From: Rhodobiaceae bacterium
Lineage (GTDB): Bacteria > Pseudomonadota > Alphaproteobacteria > MED-G09
Assembly: GCA_002723035.1 (NCBI GenBank)
Contig: PBNH01000010.1
Coordinates: 4,720-52,691, forward strand
Direction: 5' to 3'
Length of the DNA: 47,972 nt
This document shows, piece after piece, positions 2,426 through 38,869 of this stretch. Under the pieces are notes generated by a model. The model saw nothing but the letters and a program-made list of their open reading frames with translations, ran no database searches and was not told where the DNA came from. Both the position numbers and the translations under genes were made by a program. Each line of letters starts with the position of its first letter. Position 1 is the stretch's first letter.

Positions 2426-3700
2426 TTATTTTTGTCTTTTTAAGAAATCGAAAAGATATCCAGCAACTTTACGAATCTGAATTTCTTCTGATCCCTCGGT
2501 TATTCTATAGCGCCTATGATGTCTATAAATATGCTCAAAAGGTTTATGACGGGAATAACCAATACCGCCATGTACTTGAATTGCTTGGTCAGCTGCTTGG
2601 CAAACAAGTCTATTGGACCGATAATTACACATAGATACCTTATCAGATAAGTGAGTGGCTACCTCAGGTTTTGTCATTTGATCCATTTGCCAAGCGGTTT
2701 TATAAACCAGATTTCTAATCATTTCACACTCTGTATGAAGTTCAGTTAATGGAAACTGTATTGCTTGATTTGTTGACAAAGCTCTCCCAAAGGGTTTTCT
2801 CTCTTTAGCGTATTCAACACTCATATTTATACAATACTGGGCAGCGCCAACTCCGGAAGCTGCCTGTCTTATTCTATTTTCATGAACAAAATGTTGAGCA
2901 AGCTCCAATCCTCTATCAAGTTTTCCTAATACAGAAGTATTCGGCACCCAAACATCTCTAAGACTTATTAATGCATGGTCAGTTGGCATATTAAATGTCC
3001 ACATAAATTCATCAACTTCAAAGCCAAGTGCAGATGAAGGAACTAAAAAACATGTTATACCTAGCGCAGAACCATTGTCACCGCTTGTTCTTGCAAAAAT
3101 CATATCATAGTTAGCCTTATGAATTCCAGTATTCCACGTTTTTTGACCATTTATAAGCCACCCATCAACCCCATCTCTGGTCTCTGGTACTGCATTGGTT
3201 TCCATCCAAGTAGCGTCTGATCCATGGTCAGGTTCAGTTAAACCAAAAGAAATCCTATGTGATCCATTCAACATTCCATTAATAAATTCGTCTTTTTGCT
3301 CAACAGTACCGAAATCTCTTAACATTAAAACCTGGGGAAAATTTCCAACTATAGAGTTCTCATTTTGTAAGTCATTGTGTAAACCCAAACCCTTAGCTGC
3401 TAAATGTTCTCGAATAATTGCCATCGCTAAATTTGAGCCATTTTTTCCACCATATTCTTCGGGTAATCCAAATCTTAAATGACCAGCTTCATCAGCAAGC
3501 TTTCTCATTTTACCTAAAAGCTCTTCCCACTCTTCGGTAGGAAGACCCCCATTATCCCAATTGGTTCTTGAATGCTCTCTTCTGTGATCAAAGAAACGAA
3601 TATTATCATCTTCATTTTCTAATGGTTTTATTTTTTTCTCAATAAAATCATCTAGAGTATCAAGATATTCAGAAATTTCATTTGGAATTGAGAAATCCAT
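2426..3700 (-). CDS. Acyl-CoA dehydrogenase family protein
   Basis: FGLTEPDHGSD, WLINGQKTW, AIQVHGGIG, RITEGSEEIQ motifs. Confidence 0.92.
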   Translation of the reverse strand: MDFSIPNEISEYLDTLDDFIEKKIKPLENEDDNIRFFDHRREHSRTNWDNGGLPTEEWEELLGKMRKLADEAGHLRFGLPEEYGGKNGSNLAMAIIREHLAAKGLGLHNDLQNENSIVGNFPQVLMLRDFGTVEQKDEFINGMLNGSHRISFGLTEPDHGSDATWMETNAVPETRDGVDGWLINGQKTWNTGIHKANYDMIFARTSGDNGSALGITCFLVPSSALGFEVDEFMWTFNMPTDHALISLRDVWVPNTSVLGKLDRGLELAQHFVHENRIRQAASGVGAAQYCINMSVEYAKERKPFGRALSTNQAIQFPLTELHTECEMIRNLVYKTAWQMDQMTKPEVATHLSDKVSMCNYRSNRLVCQAADQAIQVHGGIGYSRHKPFEHIYRHHRRYRITEGSEEIQIRKVAGYLFDFLKRQK

Positions 3701-3790
3701 TTTAAATCCTCCGTATTCATAAAAAATTGAATATTTACATTATTTAATCATAAAATCTATTCTTTATGCATTGTGTATTGAGGATATTTT

Positions 3791-3819
3791 TTGCATATAT
3801 ATGGTATAGAACATAACGT
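3791..3819 (+). promoter_or_regulatory. Putative sigma70 promoter of the helicase operon
   Basis: TTGCAT (3791-3796), 17 nt spacer, TAACGT (3814-3819). Confidence 0.5.
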
Positions 3820-3868
3820 GAAATTAACCATGTAAGTGATTCGATCATGATATGTTCTTAAAGTGATC
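3809..3868. promoter_or_regulatory. Putative alphaproteobacterial LexA (SOS) boxes
   Basis: GAAC-N7-GAAA (3809-3823) over the -10 element, and GATC-N7-GTTC-N7-GATC (3843-3868). The alpha consensus is GAAC-N7-GAAC / GTTC-N7-GTTC; each box has one mismatch. Confidence 0.5.
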
Positions 3869-3888
3869 TAAACTATAAATTAATATAA

Positions 3889-3904
3889 ATACTATATGTA
3901 GTAT
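3889..3904. promoter_or_regulatory. Putative NrdR-box-like palindrome
   Basis: ATACTATATGTAGTAT, a near-perfect 16-bp palindrome resembling acaCwAtATaTwGtg. Confidence 0.45.
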
Positions 3905-3957
3905 AATTTATTTTTTTATTTAATTCAAATATTCAAAAAAACTTTGTAAAAGAATTT

Positions 3958-6540
3958 ATGACTGTAATTGCTGCTTTAGGGCCAACAAATACTGGTAAAA
4001 CTTATTATGCTATCGAGAGGCTTGCCGCGCATAAATCCGGAATGATTGGTTTACCATTAAGACTTCTCACAAGAGAAGTATATGACAAAATGGTATTAAA
4101 AGTTGGCCCTTCAAGAGTAGCTATGATTACAGGTGAAGAGAGAATTATTCCTGATAATCCAAAATATTGGGTGTGCACAGTAGAATCTATGCCAATAAAT
4201 ATACCCGTAGAATTCTTGGCTGTTGATGAAATACAATTGATAGATGACCCAGAGAGAGGTCATATATTTACAGATAGAATTTTAAATGCTCGTGGAATGA
4301 GTGAAACCCTTTTTATGGGTTCAAGTATCTCAAAGAAAGTAATTAAAAAGCTAATTAATAATGTAAAATTTTATGACAGAGAGAGATACTCAAAACTAAC
4401 CTATACTGGTTATAAAAAAATTAGTCACCTACCAAAAAGGTCTGCCGTAGTAGCTTTCTCAATTCAATCTGTATATGCAATAGCAGAAATTATTAAAAGA
4501 CAAAAAGGTGGTGTAGCTGTAGTTATGGGATCATTGAGTCCTCAAGCAAGGAATGCTCAAGTAAAAATGTACCAAAATGGTGATGTCGATTACATTGTTG
4601 CTACTGATGCAATTGGAATGGGCTTAAATCTAGACCTAAATCATATAGCTTTTGCTGAAACTGAAAAATATGACGGAGAGAATTTCAGAAAATTATATCC
4701 ACATGAATTAGCTCAGATTGCAGGCAGAGCAGGGAGATATCAAAGAGATGGAACATTTGGGGTTACAGGTCAAGCAATTGAAATTGATAATGCAGTTATT
4801 GCTAGAATAGAGGATCATAGATTTATACCTCTTAACTCTGCAAAATGGAGAAATAAAAATCTTAATTTTTCCTCTGTTAATAAATTAATAGAAAGTCTTA
4901 AAGCCATCCCAAATCAAACTGAGCTTGGGATCTCTAGGCAAGCCGATGACTTAAGAGCTTTAATAAGGTTAAGCCAAGACAAAGAAATCTTAGAAAATGC
5001 AAATAATAAAAAAACTATTCAAACATTATGGGAAACATCTCAAATCCCTGACTTTAGAAATATAAGTGAAGGCGAACATTCAAAGATTATTTCTTTAATT
5101 TTTAAAGAATTATGCCTAAACAATAAATTATCTGATGAATGGCTAAACTCGCATATTAAATCTTTTGATAAGTATTATGGTGATATTAATTCTCTAATGA
5201 TGAGGCTATCTGGCATAAGAACATGGACATATGTCTCTCAAAAAGAAAAATGGTTAGATAATCCAGCCTTATGGCAGAAAAAAACTCGTGAAATTGAAGA
5301 TAAACTATCTGACGCACTTCACAATTCACTCACTGAAAGGTTTGTTGAAAAAAATTCAAATAAATTAAGAATTAAGTACAAAGATAAAAAAGATATTTTA
5401 TCTGGAATCAATGATAATGGAGATATTACAGTTGAAGGCGAGTATTTTGGAAAAATACTCGGTTTCAAATTAATTACTGAGAAATCCTACTCTGAACAAT
5501 ATCTTAAACAAATCAGATCAGCGATATCTAAACCTGTAGAAATAGAAATGAAAAAAAAATCTCTTAAAATTTTATCGTCAGAGTTTGATATGTTCACTCT
5601 AAACTCAGATCTTTTTATTTATTTTAATGATGAAAAAATTGCTGGATTAAAACCTGGTAACAATCCCCTTAATCCAAGTATTAATATAATTTGTGATGAA
5701 TATTTAGACTCAAATATTAAAAAAAAGCTCGAGAATAAATTTCTTGAATGGATACAAAATTATATTAAATTTAACTTAAAAGAAATCCTTTCACTAAAAA
5801 ATACCGATAATTTGTCTCCAGGCACAAAAGGTATTGCCTTTAGATTACTTGAAGAACTTGGCCTTATAATAAGAAGCAAGATTAAAAATGAAATAAAAAT
5901 TTTAGATCAAAAATCGAGACAAGAATTAAGAAAAATGGGAGTAAAAATTGGAAAGTTCTCAATATTTTTTCCTGCAACTGTTAAGCCAAAAGCCACTGAG
6001 TTATTAATATCTTTGTGGATTAATTATTCAGAAAAAAACTATAGTCAAGACGATATTAGACTCATAAGAGAAAATTTACCGAAACCTGGTATTACTTCAT
6101 GTGCTTTAAATCAAAACATATCGCACGAGATATATAAAGTACTTGGTTATTTAGTTATTGGCAAAATGGTTATAAGAGCGGATATTATTGAGAGACTCGA
6201 CAAAATAATCTATAATCAAATTGATAAGGATTCAAAAGACAAAAGCTTTTTAGTTAACGACGAAATGATATCTTTATTAGGATGTTCTAGAGAAAATATG
6301 AAGCTAATTATAAAAAATCTTGGCTTCATTAAAAATAATAAAAAAATACACAAGCCTGATGACAATGGAATTATTTCTGAGGATCCTGAAATTTGGTACA
6401 AAAAGAAATATAATTATGGAGCAAATATTAAGAAAAAATCTAAAAAATTTAAAAAGAAATCAAAAAAAGAAACTACTTCAAATTTTTTTGCTGAAAACAA
6501 TGATCTCAAAAAGTTAAAAGAAAGATTAAAATTTGAATAG
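3958..6540 (+). CDS. SF2 Suv3/MgpS-like ATP-dependent helicase
   Basis: GPTNTGKT Walker A, PLRLL, DEIQ, ATDAIGMGLN, QIAGRAGR. Confidence 0.9.
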   Translation: MTVIAALGPTNTGKTYYAIERLAAHKSGMIGLPLRLLTREVYDKMVLKVGPSRVAMITGEERIIPDNPKYWVCTVESMPINIPVEFLAVDEIQLIDDPERGHIFTDRILNARGMSETLFMGSSISKKVIKKLINNVKFYDRERYSKLTYTGYKKISHLPKRSAVVAFSIQSVYAIAEIIKRQKGGVAVVMGSLSPQARNAQVKMYQNGDVDYIVATDAIGMGLNLDLNHIAFAETEKYDGENFRKLYPHELAQIAGRAGRYQRDGTFGVTGQAIEIDNAVIARIEDHRFIPLNSAKWRNKNLNFSSVNKLIESLKAIPNQTELGISRQADDLRALIRLSQDKEILENANNKKTIQTLWETSQIPDFRNISEGEHSKIISLIFKELCLNNKLSDEWLNSHIKSFDKYYGDINSLMMRLSGIRTWTYVSQKEKWLDNPALWQKKTREIEDKLSDALHNSLTERFVEKNSNKLRIKYKDKKDILSGINDNGDITVEGEYFGKILGFKLITEKSYSEQYLKQIRSAISKPVEIEMKKKSLKILSSEFDMFTLNSDLFIYFNDEKIAGLKPGNNPLNPSINIICDEYLDSNIKKKLENKFLEWIQNYIKFNLKEILSLKNTDNLSPGTKGIAFRLLEELGLIIRSKIKNEIKILDQKSRQELRKMGVKIGKFSIFFPATVKPKATELLISLWINYSEKNYSQDDIRLIRENLPKPGITSCALNQNISHEIYKVLGYLVIGKMVIRADIIERLDKIIYNQIDKDSKDKSFLVNDEMISLLGCSRENMKLIIKNLGFIKNNKKIHKPDDNGIISEDPEIWYKKKYNYGANIKKKSKKFKKKSKKETTSNFFAENNDLKKLKERLKFE

Positions 6541-34248: not shown

Positions 34249-35334
34249 TTACTGTGAGAGCTCCTTTAAGCATTTAATTAAAAAATTATTTGCCTCATCA
34301 TTTCCAATGCTTACTCTCAAAAAATCTGGTAAATTATATTCATGCATTTGTCTAAGAATTATACCTTTAGAGCATAAATAATTAAAAACATAATTTGCAT
34401 CAAAACTCAGATTATCTGAAACCTGAAATAAAATAAAATTACAATGACTTGGGATTGTTAAATAACCTAGGCTATCAAGTTCTTTCTTAATTTTTGGTAG
34501 CCATAAATTGTTATGTTCGATTGATTTTAATATATGATTTTGATCATCAACAGCAGCTGCTGCAACTTTTTGAGCCGTGGAATTTACTGAAAAAGGTATT
34601 CTTAATCGGCCTAAAACATCAATTACCTCATCAGGGCAATAAGCCCATCCTACTCTCAAGCCGGCAAGACCATAAGCTTTTGAAAAAGTTCTTGTGACAA
34701 CAATATTATTATTATCTTCAACCAAGGAAATAAAAGAGGAATAATCGTCATTTACATACTCTATATATGCTTCATCAATAATTAATAGTATTTTAGGTGG
34801 AAGATTTTTATGAAGAACTGTTAAATCTTGATACGAAACCAAAGTTCCGGTGGGATTATTTGGATTAGCTATAAAAATCATTTTTGTAGAATTATTTACT
34901 AAATCTAAAATTGAATTTACCTGCGTTTGAAAGTTTACCTCTTTGGCTCTAACAATTCTTGCGCCTGATGCCTGAATAGCCAAAGGATAGACTGCAAAAG
35001 AATTCTCTGAAACAATTGCTTCGTCATTTCCAGATAAATAAGCTCTAGCAAGCAAATGAAGTATTTCATCTGAACCACATCCGCAAATTATATTATTTGC
35101 GTTTATAGAATAGAATTGAGATAACTTTTTTATTAATAATGAGTTTGATGGATCAGGGTATAAGGTAATATCCTTAGCGGCTTCATTATATGCATTTATT
35201 ACACTTTCACTTGGCCCAAATGGGTTTTCATTTGAAGATAATTTAAATATTTTATCAACGCCATTAATATTACTAGCGCCACCCTTATAGGATTTTAAAT
35301 CATTTAAAAAATTATTTGGTATCGGTTTATCCAT
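34249..35334 (-). CDS. hisC: Histidinol-phosphate aminotransferase
   Basis: LSSNENP, NPNNPTG, DEAY, RTFSKAYGLAGLRVG. Confidence 0.94.
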   Translation of the reverse strand: MDKPIPNNFLNDLKSYKGGASNINGVDKIFKLSSNENPFGPSESVINAYNEAAKDITLYPDPSNSLLIKKLSQFYSINANNIICGCGSDEILHLLARAYLSGNDEAIVSENSFAVYPLAIQASGARIVRAKEVNFQTQVNSILDLVNNSTKMIFIANPNNPTGTLVSYQDLTVLHKNLPPKILLIIDEAYIEYVNDDYSSFISLVEDNNNIVVTRTFSKAYGLAGLRVGWAYCPDEVIDVLGRLRIPFSVNSTAQKVAAAAVDDQNHILKSIEHNNLWLPKIKKELDSLGYLTIPSHCNFILFQVSDNLSFDANYVFNYLCSKGIILRQMHEYNLPDFLRVSIGNDEANNFLIKCLKELSQ

Positions 35335-35496
35335 ATTTAAACAACATTATTCTGATTAATAGTTATATTATTAAAATCTCAAAAAAAGAAATCTTAGTTT
35401 TTTATATAACTTATAAAATTCTTATAACAAAACTTTAAAATTCAGTAATAAGCATATTTTATTTGCAATTTATAAAAATTAGTCTTATGTATCAAA

Positions 35497-35587
35497 CTAC
35501 ATTTTGAGAGGGAGTAATCCCTGCCAACCTGCAATAACCTGCGAAGGTGGTAACTTTAATGTGGCTTATTAGGCAAAAAAAGGTTTT
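35497..35587 (+). ncRNA. SAM-I/IV-type riboswitch aptamer
   Basis: P1 ACAUU/AAUGU (35499-503/35558-62); J1/2 UUGAG; P2 AGGGA-GUAA-UCCCU; P3 GCC-AA-CCU/AGG-U-GGU with the AA/U internal loop; no P4; P5 GCUU-AUU-AGGC; pseudoknot between L3 AACCU (35536-40) and AGGUU (35581-85). Confidence 0.82.
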
Positions 35588-35632
35588 TTCTCTCATTTGT
35601 AAATATAGTTAAGTTTAGCTTCCTAAAGAAGC

Positions 35633-35690
35633 TGGGTATTTGATTTTCAGATTGTGCACCCTAGATTTCCTTAAAGCACTAAAGAGAGGA
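35633..35690 (+). ncRNA. SAM-V riboswitch overlapping the ompW RBS
   Basis: GGGU-A-UUUGA...UUGUGC-ACCC...UAAAGCACUAAA-GAGAGG; P1 GGGU/ACCC, pseudoknot GUGC (35654-57)/GCAC (35676-79); SD 5 nt before the ATG. Confidence 0.88.
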
Positions 35691-35694
35691 AAAA

Positions 35695-36366
35695 ATGAAA
35701 AAACAATTTTTTAAAAAAACCCTATCACTATTATCATCTTTGGTATTAGTTTTATTTATTTCTTTAACTCCGCTAAGCGTAATATCTCAAGAAGTAACTG
35801 CATTTAAAAGTGCTGGAAAATGGCTAGTCGGTCTTAAAGTTTTAAATTTAGATCCTGATGAAAAATCAGTAACTTCAATTGGCGGCGAAGCAAAAGTTGA
35901 TGATGATACTGTGCCAGAACTAGATATTAGATATTTTTTAACTGACAATATTGCTATCGAAGCAATTTTTGGGACCACTGAACATAGTGTAAAGGCTATT
36001 GGAACAGCTCTTGGGGATGTTAATTTAGGTACAGTAAAAGTTTTACCGCCTACATTTACTCTTCAATATCATTTCAATAGTGAAAGTAGATTCTTACCAT
36101 ATATTGGTGCTGGAATAAATTATACCTTTTTCTACGATGATAACCCTGGTGACGCGGTAGGTATTAGCTACAAGGATGAGGTTGGTTTTGCACTAAATGT
36201 AGGTTTTGACTATATTATTAATGAAAATAACTATTTTAATATAGATATCAAAAAATATAAGCTTTCAACTGACACAGTAATTGATGCTGGGCCAGCTGGT
36301 ATTGCTACTGCATCAGTAGACCTAGACCCAATAGCAGTAAGTATTGGCTATGGGTGGAGATTTTAA
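35695..36366 (+). CDS. ompW: OmpW-family outer membrane beta-barrel
   Basis: Signal peptide, PELDIRYFLTDNIAIE, VLPPTFTLQYHF, PYIGAGINYTFF, C-terminal GYGWRF. Confidence 0.92.
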   Translation: MKKQFFKKTLSLLSSLVLVLFISLTPLSVISQEVTAFKSAGKWLVGLKVLNLDPDEKSVTSIGGEAKVDDDTVPELDIRYFLTDNIAIEAIFGTTEHSVKAIGTALGDVNLGTVKVLPPTFTLQYHFNSESRFLPYIGAGINYTFFYDDNPGDAVGISYKDEVGFALNVGFDYIINENNYFNIDIKKYKLSTDTVIDAGPAGIATASVDLDPIAVSIGYGWRF

Positions 36367-36420
36367 AGAATTAATTAAATATTAATTCTAATATTTCTAA
36401 TAAGAGGTTATCTTATTGCT

Positions 36421-37554
36421 ATGAATACTGATCAAAATAAGCTTCCATGTTCATACTTTAGAGATACTAAACCTCTTTTACTAGAGAATGGAACAACTAT
36501 AGATGAGCTTACTGTAGCCTATGAAAGCTATGGTAAGCTCAATCAAGATAAATCAAATGCAATAATAATTTGTCATGCCCTTTCTGGCGATCAGTTTTTA
36601 GCGAGTAAAAATCCTTTAACTAATAAAGATGGTTGGTGGAATAGGATGGTTGGTAGTGGAAAACCAATCGACACTGATAAATATTTTGTGATTTGTGCAA
36701 ATGTTCTTGGTGGCTGCCTAGGATCTACCGGACCTACCTCGATAAATCCATCTACCGGCGAAGAGTACGGACTAAATTTTCCAGTTATAACTATTTCCGA
36801 CATGGTTAATGCACAAATGAGACTAATTCAGTACTTAGAAATTGATAAACTCTTATCAGTTATTGGAGGGTCAATGGGTGGAATGCAAGTTCTTGAGTGG
36901 GCGGCTTCTTATCCATCTAGTATTCTCTCTGCGATTCCAATTGCCACCTCTTCTAGGCATACAGCGCAAAATATTGCATTTCATGAACTTGGGAGACAAG
37001 CTATAATGGCTGATCCAGATTGGAGCGGTGGTAACTATATAAAAGTTGGCACTAATCCTAACAAAGGATTGTCAATTGCAAGAATGACAGCTCATGTTAC
37101 TTATTTATCAGAGGCTTCTCTTACGAAAAAATTTGGAAGAAGACTTCAAGATAAAGAAGAAATAAGCTTTGGATTTGATGCTGATTTTCAAATCGAAAGT
37201 TATTTAAGGCATCAAGGGCTAACATTTGTGGATAGATTTGATGCCAACTCTTATCTTTATATTACAAGAGCTATGGATTATTTTGATTTAGAAAAAACTC
37301 ATAAAAAAAGTTTAACAGAAATTTTTGAAAATACTGATATTAAGTTCCTAATAGCATCATTTACTGGAGATTGGCTGTATCCACCATCTGAAAATTTAAT
37401 GATTGTTAGGGCATTAAGTGCAGGAGGAGCTGATGTTAGTTTTGTTAATATTGAGTCTGACAAAGGTCATGATGCTTTTCTTTTAGAAGAGCCAGAATTT
37501 GACGATGCAATGAGAGGGTTTATTAATTCAATTTCTATAGAGGCGAAAATATAA
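36421..37554 (+). CDS. metX: Homoserine O-acetyltransferase
   Basis: CHALSGD, NVLGGCLGS, GGSMGGM, RFDAN, GHDAFL. Confidence 0.95.
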   Translation: MNTDQNKLPCSYFRDTKPLLLENGTTIDELTVAYESYGKLNQDKSNAIIICHALSGDQFLASKNPLTNKDGWWNRMVGSGKPIDTDKYFVICANVLGGCLGSTGPTSINPSTGEEYGLNFPVITISDMVNAQMRLIQYLEIDKLLSVIGGSMGGMQVLEWAASYPSSILSAIPIATSSRHTAQNIAFHELGRQAIMADPDWSGGNYIKVGTNPNKGLSIARMTAHVTYLSEASLTKKFGRRLQDKEEISFGFDADFQIESYLRHQGLTFVDRFDANSYLYITRAMDYFDLEKTHKKSLTEIFENTDIKFLIASFTGDWLYPPSENLMIVRALSAGGADVSFVNIESDKGHDAFLLEEPEFDDAMRGFINSISIEAKI

Positions 37555-38159
37555 TGAATAACAATAGAGCTGATCTTGAATTAATAACATCTCTCGTAGA
37601 CGAAAGGACAAGAATCCTTGATGTTGGTTGTGGAAATGGAGAGTTATTACAATCCTTAAAAGATAAAAAAAGTATCAAAGGTCAAGGTCTTGAGCTTAAA
37701 CAAGAAAGAGTTAATCAATGCGTTTCAAGAGGTTTATCAGCAATTCAAGGAAATGCTGATAGCGACCTCAGCCTCTATCCAAATCAATCATTTGATTGCG
37801 TAATTTTAAGCCAAACAATTCAAGCAACTAGTAACCCAAAAAATATTTTAATCGAATTAGTTAGAATTGGTAAAAAAGCAATTGTCTCAATACCAAATTT
37901 TGGCTTTTGGAAAGTAAGATTTGGCTTTGCTGCTCATGGCAAAATGCCTATTACAAAGAAACTTTCAAATAATTGGTATGATACTCCAAATATTCACTTG
38001 TGTAGTATACTAGATTTTGTTGATTTATGTAAGATCCTGAATATTAAAATTGAAAAAACAATTGTTCTTTCATCAAATAAAACCAAATCATTTAATGGTT
38101 ATCCTAATAATTGGTCAAATCTTTTTGGAGAAGAAGCAATTTTTTTGATAAAAAGTTAA
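37554..38159 (+). CDS. metW: Methionine biosynthesis protein MetW
   Basis: LDVGCGNG, ILSQTIQ, SIPNFGFW, WYDTPNIHLC. Confidence 0.94.
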   Translation: MNNNRADLELITSLVDERTRILDVGCGNGELLQSLKDKKSIKGQGLELKQERVNQCVSRGLSAIQGNADSDLSLYPNQSFDCVILSQTIQATSNPKNILIELVRIGKKAIVSIPNFGFWKVRFGFAAHGKMPITKKLSNNWYDTPNIHLCSILDFVDLCKILNIKIEKTIVLSSNKTKSFNGYPNNWSNLFGEEAIFLIKS

Positions 38160-38869
38160 GCTTTTATATCACTTTTCATTTTTTGATTAATTAACTTTTT
38201 ATCATTTGCAACTGGAACTAAATAGTTTTTTTTACCCTTTATAATTATCACTCCAGAGAAATACTTTGTTAGTGCATTATTTAGAAATTCAAATAATTTT
38301 AATTTATCAATTAAAAACTTACTTTTTGGTGGTGGCAGAAATAAAGAGTATTCAATATCTACAATAGTAAAAAAATTATTTAGTAATAATAAACTTAATT
38401 CATAAGAACTGAATGTTCTTAAAGAGTTTAATTTTTTTTTGTAAAAGAAACGCCAAAAGCCAAAAATATTTGGAACTATAATTATAATCTCACCGTCTTT
38501 TTCTAAAATCCTCCAAGACTCCCTTAAAAATTTTTTATGGTCATATAGATATTCAATGCAATTTACAACAAGTAACCGATCAACTGATAAATCGTCTAAA
38601 GGAAGAGAGTATTCGTTAACTGATACTGTTAAATTTTTTTTATCTAATGGAAAATTAATTAATCCAAATTTTCTAGGAACAAGAAAAAATAACCTTTGAA
38701 AATTAGACCTAAAGATTTCCAAAAAAGGAAATCCATAGCCTATCACAGCATTTTTTGAATTATTAAAATCTGGCCACAATAAAAAAATTTTTTTTGAAAT
38801 AATTTGAACTACAGATTTACCTAAAAAACTAGAATAAAAAATTTTAAAATTTTCAATATTTATCTTCAT
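38156..38869 (-). CDS. Class I SAM-dependent methyltransferase-like protein (YafS-like)
   Basis: GYGFP, LPLDDLSVDR, LRESWRIL...G.IIIIVPN; divergent from gloB. Confidence 0.78.
   Translation of the reverse strand: MKINIENFKIFYSSFLGKSVVQIISKKIFLLWPDFNNSKNAVIGYGFPFLEIFRSNFQRLFFLVPRKFGLINFPLDKKNLTVSVNEYSLPLDDLSVDRLLVVNCIEYLYDHKKFLRESWRILEKDGEIIIIVPNIFGFWRFFYKKKLNSLRTFSSYELSLLLLNNFFTIVDIEYSLFLPPPKSKFLIDKLKLFEFLNNALTKYFSGVIIIKGKKNYLVPVANDKKLINQKMKSDIKA

Follow-up and report, generated by a model that had tools for sequence, protein, structure and literature searches.

A tandem SAM-I/IV and SAM-V leader before ompW, metX and metW in a marine alphaproteobacterial clade: a candidate entry route for reduced sulfur

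Introduction

Why should the gene for a small outer-membrane channel stand directly behind a riboswitch for S-adenosylmethionine (SAM), ahead of two genes of methionine biosynthesis? The question is raised by a locus in a 47 972-nt stretch of contig PBNH01000010.1 (GenBank assembly GCA_002723035.1, Rhodobiaceae bacterium), hereafter the window, to which all plain coordinates refer. A sequence-only reading of the window had made ompW the first gene of a SAM-riboswitch-led ompW–metX–metW unit, and we recover that gene order, with hisC diverging from it, at 19 of the 19 related loci that are long enough to show it. The leader holds two SAM aptamers in tandem, SAM-I/IV and then SAM-V, both above their Rfam thresholds; the earlier account of the leader was sound as regards SAM-V and incomplete in that it did not mention the SAM-I/IV aptamer upstream of it. 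We are confident that ompW, metX and metW form one SAM-regulated operon, and we regard a role of OmpW in the entry of a sulfur or methionine nutrient as on balance probable. The fuller proposal that we favor, a SAM-repressed operon in which OmpW admits the sulfur donor of MetY, is offered tentatively, as an explanation that stops a little short of probable. That the cargo is specifically a small hydrophobic sulfur compound is a more doubtful proposition; our best guess would be methanethiol, with dimethyl sulfide (DMS) or sulfide as possibilities.

The genome from which the window comes (G000; 0.97 Mb, 61% complete) belongs to an order represented here by 25 genomes of 0.9–1.6 Mb (hereafter the clade), all in one family and three genera: g1, the window's own genus (G000 and G016–G024), and g2 and g3 (G001–G015). 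Five of these genomes (G004, G013, G021, G023, and G024) are near-complete (93–97%). Named relatives are titled PS1 clade, OCS116 cluster, or “Rhodobiaceae” metagenome-assembled genomes (MAGs). PS1 and OCS116 relatives are free-living marine Alphaproteobacteria, and our literature search on them found only community surveys.

Anatomy of the locus

On the forward strand, a 360-nt leader and three genes (ompW, metX, and metW) form a block between hisC and a methyltransferase-like gene. The features of the block are these:

35494–35590, + strand: SAM-I/IV aptamer (RF01725), 59.0 bits against a gathering score of 41.1
35587–35601, + strand: linker segment UUUCUCUCAUUUGUA, a potential pairing partner of the 5′ strand of P1 and J1/2 of SAM-I/IV; candidate switching sequence
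35613–35637, + strand: inter-aptamer hairpin, followed by AUUUGAUUUU (35638–35647); candidate intrinsic terminator, as expression platform of SAM-I/IV
35625–35692, + strand: SAM-V aptamer (RF01826), 44.1 bits against a gathering score of 41
35695–36366, + strand: ompW, 223 aa; Pfam PF03922 (OmpW)
36367–36420, + strand: ompW–metX spacer, 54 nt
36421–37554, + strand: metX, homoserine O-acetyltransferase; NCBIfam equivalog NF001209, 527.9 bits against a cut-off of 331
37554–38159, + strand: metW; TIGR02081, 247.6 bits against 189.5; Pfam MetW, 1.6e-74

As the sequence-only reading had it, metX begins 54 nt past ompW and is coupled to metW, the two overlapping by 1 nt (TAATG). Both genes lie above their equivalog cut-offs, whereas the models that address acetyl versus succinyl specificity of metX give scores below theirs (TIGR01392, 466 against 500; NF047916, 470 against 560).

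The SAM-V aptamer on the ompW ribosome-binding site

The SAM-V element had been placed on the ribosome-binding site of ompW rather than on metX, and this holds: its 3′ end covers the GAGAGG Shine–Dalgarno sequence (SD; 35683–35688) and stops 2 nt before the ompW ATG at 35695. The match is only just above threshold (E-value 5.9e-4 over the whole window and 1.4e-5 over a 1.1-kb stretch), yet no aptamer core or SD varies in an alignment of 20 leaders drawn from the three genera, so that chance does not explain the match; the start codon is likewise invariant in that alignment, while the linker drifts. SAM-V is at or above threshold in 15 of the 20 related loci, and three of the remaining five score 33.6–39.6 bits, L003 and L022 being without a score. 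The strands of its H-type pseudoknot, identified by comparing the sequence with the Rfam consensus line rather than by counting helix pairs, are present with the SD directly 3′ of the aptamer: GGGU (35635–35638) is complementary to ACCC (35658–35661), and UUGUGC pairs with GCAC-U-AA.

In SAM-V, SAM stabilizes a major-groove triplex and a short helix and so occludes an SD directly 3′ (Huang and Lilley 2018), and by the same mechanism SAM would be expected to occlude the SD of ompW. Since metX has its own SD at 36402–36407, direct translational control would fall on ompW only. Because SAM-V sits on the ompW ribosome-binding site and stays invariant in all 20 leaders while the linker drifts, ompW is probably the most tightly SAM-controlled gene of the unit.

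The SAM-I/IV aptamer and its candidate expression platform

The upstream aptamer scores above the gathering threshold of its Rfam covariance model in 20 of 20 related loci (57.3–66.0 bits). As SAM-V alone acts on the ribosome-binding site of ompW, it is SAM-I/IV, and not SAM-V, that could place metX and metW under transcriptional SAM control. Two segments downstream of the aptamer are candidates for such a function.

The first is the linker. In minimum free energy (MFE) folds and by duplex energies, 35587–35601 can form an alternative helix with 35496–35510 in place of the 3′ strand of P1, and a comparable pairing of linker with P1 and J1/2, in different letters, is found in 20 of 20 leaders. 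Measured against shuffled sequences, the observed energy is reached by at most 3 of 300 shuffles in eight of nine g1 leaders and by 22 of 300 in the ninth (L008); in the 11 g2 and g3 leaders, it is reached by 10–105 of 300, and none of these helices is distinguishable from shuffles. An anti-SD role for the UUUUUUCUCUC linker was also considered; it was plausible in g1 and not clearly so in g2, and was dropped.

The second is the hairpin at 35613–35637, which a terminator scan marked as terminator-like and which forms in all 20 leaders, with energies of −4.1 to −11.6 kcal/mol. Its pairing is kept across the alignment (83.3% of cells paired, compensatory changes in 3 of 9 pairs), with a covariation score of 0.298 compared to 0.186 in shuffles (0 of 500 as high) and 0.015–0.119 in slid controls. 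The 3′ arm and U-run of this hairpin overlap the 5′ strand and the third strand of SAM-V. By eye and by MFE folding we found no antiterminator helix that would sequester an arm of the hairpin, which is present in every MFE fold. Our best reading of the leader, inferred from these features, is that SAM-I/IV attenuates transcription of the whole operon.

Flanking features are as follows:

34249–35334, − strand: hisC, divergent from the ompW leader
35462–35491, + strand: candidate promoter, with TTTGCA/TTGCAA as −35 and TATGTA ∼17 nt downstream; low certainty
38156–38869, − strand: methyltransferase-like gene, 237 aa; Methyltransf_11, 3.9e-6; no NCBIfam match

The candidate promoter adjoins the first aptamer upstream, and its TTTGC is (nearly) invariant in the 20-leader alignment; it was not listed by a consensus promoter scan of the region, and its identification as a promoter, drawn from this conservation, is of low certainty. 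The methyltransferase-like gene is convergent with metW, whose end it overlaps by 4 nt, and is kept next to metW in genus g1 only (52–92% identity).

Conservation inside and outside the clade

An OmpW orthologue is present in 22 of the 25 genomes, including 8 of 8 high-quality ones; the three in which it was missed are 67–82% complete. The gene order given above for 19 loci also holds in 19 of 19 named clade contigs. Identity of OmpW falls to only 65% where that of hisC drops to 52–59%, and OmpW is about as conserved as metX (65–97% and 73–98%, respectively). In each of the five near-complete genomes there is exactly one OmpW-family gene, the SAM-controlled one. The sequence-only reading would have been refuted by orthologues mostly without a SAM riboswitch or a link to met genes; inside the clade they keep both, as the counts for the two aptamers and for gene order attest.

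Beyond the clade the picture is different, and the linkage is not general. We compared the best 80 OmpW relatives on genome contigs, 60 of them outside the clade, and scanned the 20 nearest outside loci with Rfam. Neither metX nor metW was found in the flanks of any of the 60, and no SAM aptamer was found on the ompW strand in any of the 20. Among these best 80, OmpW identity is at least 65% inside the clade, 58% at one outside locus, and at most 52% at the rest. Because SAM switches and met genes are missing from the outside loci, we take the ompW–SAM–met linkage to be one evolutionary event, which is old enough to predate the three genera and has stayed in all of them.

Some outside loci deserve individual description. 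The closest homologue (58%; L043, 1276–3663, from a MAG titled Gammaproteobacteria) follows genes for a Rieske ring-hydroxylating oxygenase alpha subunit and a DoxX protein, and has no SAM aptamer. In a Rhodospirillales MAG (L058), a SAM_alpha aptamer of 64.2 bits lies at 2492–2571 (− strand), ∼430 nt upstream of an OmpW homologue; it faces away from that gene, with a tRNA between them, and the proximity is probably a coincidence. Two alphaproteobacterial MAGs (L049 and L051, ∼3001–4455) carry two adjacent, tandem OmpW-family paralogues. A search of 149 other sampled genomes of the class did not find SAM-V, a result that says little given its stricter filters and one genome per family. SAM-I/IV was met in other families of the class at seven loci, before metA in two and before an S-methyl_trans gene in one, the other four having no interpretable downstream open reading frame.

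A single origin invites the explanation that ompW landed once between a SAM leader and metX and is a general outer-membrane protein, with no sulfur or methionine cargo. Compact genomes such as these, in which operon fusions save promoters, would favor such an event, and many unrelated roles have been proposed for OmpW-family proteins. A precedent exists in Pelagibacter, where the genes behind SAM riboswitches include osmC, which has no transport meaning (Smith et al. 2016, PMC5069961), so a first cistron need not be a component of the pathway. The placement of the second aptamer tells against this explanation: SAM-V lies on the ribosome-binding site of ompW rather than of metX, and does so invariantly in the three genera. 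Nor would a passenger be expected to be the sole OmpW-family gene of each near-complete genome and to be conserved about as well as metX, and a housekeeping envelope protein that is shut off at high SAM would be odd. We judge the passenger explanation unlikely, although it survives better than the alternatives taken up below.

The OmpW protein

The ompW product matches Pfam PF03922 over residues 57–223 at 160.1 bits (cut-off 24; E-value 8.1e-47), and a profile of ten clade OmpW sequences retrieves from the PDB OprG (1.3e-24), E. coli OmpW (2.5e-20), and AlkL (1.5e-19). Its AlphaFold (AF2) model has a mean predicted local distance difference test score (pLDDT) of 86.5 and a predicted template modeling (TM) score (pTM) of 0.74, and in Foldseek it retrieves 2x27 (OprG; E-value 1.1e-16, TM 0.79/0.84), 2f1t (OmpW; TM 0.71/0.86), and 8qxp (TM 0.70/0.87), so that it superposes on OprG/OmpW structures at TM 0.84–0.87 when normalized to the target. 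By sequence and predicted fold, we thus assign it to the OmpW/OprG/AlkL family of eight-stranded outer-membrane barrels. The N-terminus, read by eye, is basic and then hydrophobic in the manner of a signal peptide, with a helix at residues 3–21 of the model, and the C-terminus (...GYGWRF) ends in the aromatic residue typical of outer-membrane proteins. The prolines of its LPPT motif align with the OprG motif, P118 being invariant and P119 conserved in at least 90% of 35 sequences. The protein is a family member and not an orthologue of the enterobacterial OmpW (NF008202, 105.2 bits against a cut-off of 287). Among the 25 genomes, none has a match to the general-porin marker Porin_2 (PF02530), an uninformative result in that, among the controls, only E. 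coli and Bacteroides gave a match and Caulobacter gave none.

Sulfur and methionine metabolism of the clade

The OmpW family is known for passing small hydrophobic solutes. A second unit behind a SAM aptamer bears on the sulfur supply of the clade:

L117 (contig C25 of G000), 1501–1581 and 1629–2921: SAM-II aptamer and metY, respectively; downstream gene read in the window's genome only

The gene behind this SAM-II/SAM_alpha aptamer (56.2 bits) encodes O-acetylhomoserine sulfhydrylase (TIGR01326, 7e-183), and the same aptamer is present in G024, G021, and G004 at 59.7–66.5 bits. The sulfite-reductase (PF01077, NIR_SIR) and phosphoadenylylsulfate (PAPS)-reductase (PF01507) families were absent from all five near-complete genomes, in searches whose controls were positive in 11 of 14 and 14 of 14 genomes, respectively. 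Assimilatory sulfate reduction thus appears to be absent, as in SAR11, and reduced sulfur would have to come from outside. The DMSP (dimethylsulfoniopropionate) demethylase DmdA (NF009133) exceeds its cut-off in none of the 25 genomes, where the sensitivity of the search is unproven since no control genome contains DmdA; the sole strong GcvT-family gene in G024 is gcvT itself, within gcvTHP. DMSP, which the sequence-only reading had entertained among the possible compounds, becomes less likely as an internal source of methanethiol.

MetE was found in none of the 25 genomes. MetH (1232–1248 aa) is present in 9 of 12 g2 and 3 of 3 g3 genomes and in 0 of 10 g1 genomes; a short S-methyl_trans protein occurs in only two of the ten g1 genomes, and in none of the three that are at least 93% complete. 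Genus g1 therefore seems, from its gene content, to have retained metX, metW, and metY without any known homocysteine methyltransferase. MetY condenses methanethiol with O-acetylhomoserine (Smith et al. 2016, PMC5069961; Hennig et al. 2020). In g1, direct condensation of these two compounds would be the only known route from MetX and MetY to the SAM pool. The earlier suggestion that O-acetylhomoserine from MetX accepts a thiol through a MetY-type enzyme gains context from the SAM-II-led metY, from the missing sulfate assimilation, and from the g1 genomes without MetH and MetE; and since the clade appears to have neither sulfate reduction nor DmdA, these same findings make entry of the sulfur donor, in our view, the most likely role of OmpW. 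Any such role cannot depend on the loss of MetH, because g2 and g3 have MetH together with the same operon.

OmpW might be SAM-regulated and yet admit a polar or zwitterionic nutrient, such as methionine, small amino acids, or an onium compound (DMSP or glycine betaine) used as a source of sulfur or methyl groups. Its best match in both sequence and structure is OprG, which reportedly passes small amino acids, and OmpW of Vibrio cholerae is said to be linked to carnitine uptake; the conserved LPPT prolines aligned with the OprG motif and the need of the clade to import reduced sulfur fit a polar cargo as well. Each candidate meets an obstacle downstream, however: without DmdA, the known route from DMSP to methanethiol would be closed; eight of ten g1 genomes have no BhmT-, MmuM-, or MetH-type enzyme, so that a betaine methyl group would lack its acceptor step; and direct import of methionine would make the co-produced O-acetylhomoserine pointless. 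Solved channels of the OmpW family are, moreover, narrow and hydrophobic. We hold a polar cargo to be improbable, slightly more so than the passenger explanation above.

An AlkB-like oxygenase in the SAM regulon

The clade's SAM regulon comprises three or four units: metXW, metY, the outer-membrane channel and, in some genomes, a hydrocarbon-type hydroxylase, found at these loci:

L120–L129: AlkB-like loci; e.g. L119:1582–2739 + 2758–3066; L109:222–1370

This last is an AlkB-like membrane di-iron oxygenase of 380–386 aa (Pfam FA_desaturase PF00487, 1e-24; PDB 8sbb, alkane 1-monooxygenase, 2.6e-29), encoded in 10 of the 25 genomes of the order and not found in the window's own, 61% complete genome. 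At each of the 10 loci, the oxygenase gene is immediately preceded by a SAM aptamer match in the same orientation. This match is SAM-I/IV above threshold at four loci, with an additional SAM-V-like match of 40.6 bits at one of these, and SAM_alpha-like at the other six, where scores of 31–34.5 bits fall short of the threshold of 36. In nine of the 10, the oxygenase gene is followed by a gene for a 2Fe-2S ferredoxin; the tenth locus is cut by a contig end. At two g2 loci (L124 and L125, in G006 and G011), the SAM-controlled AlkB-like gene adjoins metH, divergently. In Pseudomonas, AlkB has an OmpW-family importer, AlkL, as its partner, and we take the AlkB-like gene as a hint of a hydrophobic OmpW substrate; a pairing of the two genes at one locus is not seen here, where ompW and the AlkB-like gene share SAM-aptamer control only. 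Our literature search found no published hydrocarbon-type hydroxylase in a SAM regulon, and nothing linking riboswitch, alkane hydroxylase, and methanethiol.

These genes allow a bolder version of the sulfur-entry proposal, a module for volatile organosulfur compounds. OmpW would pass methanethiol and DMS, the AlkB-like oxygenase and ferredoxin (where present) would hydroxylate DMS and so yield methanethiol and formaldehyde, and MetY would make methionine in one step, replacing methionine synthase in g1. We consider this extension a long shot. If the loss of MetH and MetE in g1 and the SAM control of an AlkB-like oxygenase hold up, they would point to bacteria that are abundant in the ocean and build methionine from methanethiol or DMS.

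One operon or two units

The ompW–metX spacer, 46–56 nt long in the 11 loci folded, contains two A+U-rich hairpins in the window, at 36367–36389 (after the ompW stop) and 36398–36418; the latter holds part of the metX SD (AAGAGG, 36402–36407) in its 5′ arm and loop in genus g1, and neither hairpin is kept in g2. A terminator scan and folding found no G+C-rich terminator in the spacer. Contigs assembled from RNA libraries of four studies bear on transcription; they derive from relatives 90–99% identical (mostly 90–95%), not from the window's own strain. Contig X7 (record 17) spans the leader into ompW, contig X2 (record 9; 35779–36572, 794 nt) bridges ompW and metX, and contig X1 (record 6; 36622–37608) spans metX into metW. 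All 20 matching sequencing runs carry at most 0.11 of the sampled words, and per-contig depths were not used for ranking; stretches that no contig covers were left out of account. A search of five genomes for three aptamer classes turned up none before metX other than those of the ompW leader; except for G013, each genome has a single SAM-I/IV plus SAM-V site and a single SAM-II site.

That the SAM leader controls ompW only, with metX–metW expressed from a promoter of their own in the spacer or inside ompW, is very unlikely: the first spacer hairpin with AAUAUUU could be a weak terminator, a promoter-like match lies inside ompW at 36187–36216, and contigs cannot prove a single transcript, but promoter-like matches are at chance level (13 compared to 15.0 ± 4.3 in shuffles), spacer sequence is not conserved between genera although gene order is, MetX is a usual SAM-regulated step and yet has no other SAM aptamer before it, and the 794-nt contig runs from ompW into metX.

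A model for the operon and its weak points

Our preferred explanation remains a single SAM-repressed operon that couples sulfur-donor entry to O-acetylhomoserine synthesis. At high SAM, SAM-I/IV would stop the transcript early, most likely at the 35613–35637 hairpin and its U-run, and SAM-V would fold its 3′ strand over the ompW SD, specifically blocking ompW translation. At low SAM, the OmpW channel, MetX, and MetW would be made together; MetX with MetW would supply O-acetylhomoserine, and OmpW would raise the permeability of the outer membrane for an external reduced-sulfur compound, which MetY would join to it. Anatomy and conservation are observed here; SAM switching, co-transcription and above all the substrate are what the model adds to them.

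Several points weigh against this model. The at least 20 conserved cases are all kin, and with a single origin of the linkage they amount to one observation; the osmC precedent applies here too. Methanethiol, DMS, and H2S cross lipid bilayers easily, making the need for a channel arguable. Genera g2 and g3 retain MetH and have the same operon nonetheless, and the AlkB-like gene belongs to the accessory genome, being carried by 10 of 25 genomes and at another locus than ompW. The leader offers a weak candidate terminator (−4 to −12 kcal/mol) with an interrupted U-run, no clear antiterminator, and an alternative linker helix that stands out from shuffles in g1 only. RNA contigs of relatives, finally, cannot prove a single ompW–metX–metW transcript.

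Comparison with known systems

Within the literature that we searched (Poiata et al. 2009 and the supplementary gene lists of Weinberg et al. 2010 lay outside it), we found no published OmpW-family member under a riboswitch or in a met operon, nor the pairing of SAM-I/IV with SAM-V, the known tandem being SAM-II/SAM-V. Ours would thus be the first case that our search found in which a SAM riboswitch controls a way in through the outer membrane, and it would give an OmpW-family protein a directly testable physiological context. The entry of reduced sulfur into a SAR11-like clade that seems unable to reduce sulfate bears on the marine sulfur cycle; the clade appears to share with SAR11 the reliance on external reduced sulfur, but no DMSP demethylation route was found in it.

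The closest parallel is the SAM-II/SAM-V tandem before bhmT in Pelagibacter, whose first aptamer gives way to a hairpin and a poly(U) stretch (Feng et al. 2024, PMC11508383; Smith et al. 2016, PMC5069961). Both leaders have two aptamers, a hairpin and U-run after the first that would act on transcription, and SAM-V on the ribosome-binding site, where it would act on translation; both belong to marine alphaproteobacteria with small genomes, without sulfate assimilation, and with a non-methionine gene in the SAM regulon (in Pelagibacter, osmC). They differ in that the first aptamer is SAM-I/IV with a junction fold here and SAM-II with a pseudoknot there, in that the U-run here doubles as the third strand of SAM-V, and in that the genes controlled are an outer-membrane channel and metXW rather than bhmT. 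According to Smith et al. (2016, PMC5069961), SAR11 SAM riboswitches control enzymes and not uptake, and organosulfur import in Pelagibacter is not raised under sulfur limitation; here, by contrast, a putative uptake component lies within the SAM regulon.

More widely in Alphaproteobacteria, SAM-II/SAM_alpha stands directly before metX, metA, metY, or metH (Leyn et al. 2014, PMC4239095), and SAM-II before metX in Pelagibacter (PMC5069961). This bears out the background of the sequence-only reading, that SAM riboswitches of this class usually precede met genes directly, as do the metA and S-methyl_trans loci sampled above. The present operon shares with such regulons the SAM feedback on homoserine acylation, and differs from them in its extra, non-enzymatic first cistron, ompW, next to a translational aptamer. 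As a protein, the channel resembles the OmpW/OprG/AlkL barrels (2f1t, 2x27, and 6qam) in its Pfam match, its predicted fold, and its LPPT prolines aligned with OprG, while, unlike alkL, ompW of the clade is not adjacent to an alkB. In regulatory logic, the nearest likeness is btuB, where a cobalamin riboswitch controls an outer-membrane uptake protein: in both cases, a sensor of the end product would repress the outer-membrane entry route of a nutrient or precursor. BtuB, however, is TonB-dependent and actively transports molecules of the same family as the ligand, whereas OmpW, with a precursor (a sulfur donor and not SAM) as its presumed cargo, is predicted to be a small passive barrel.

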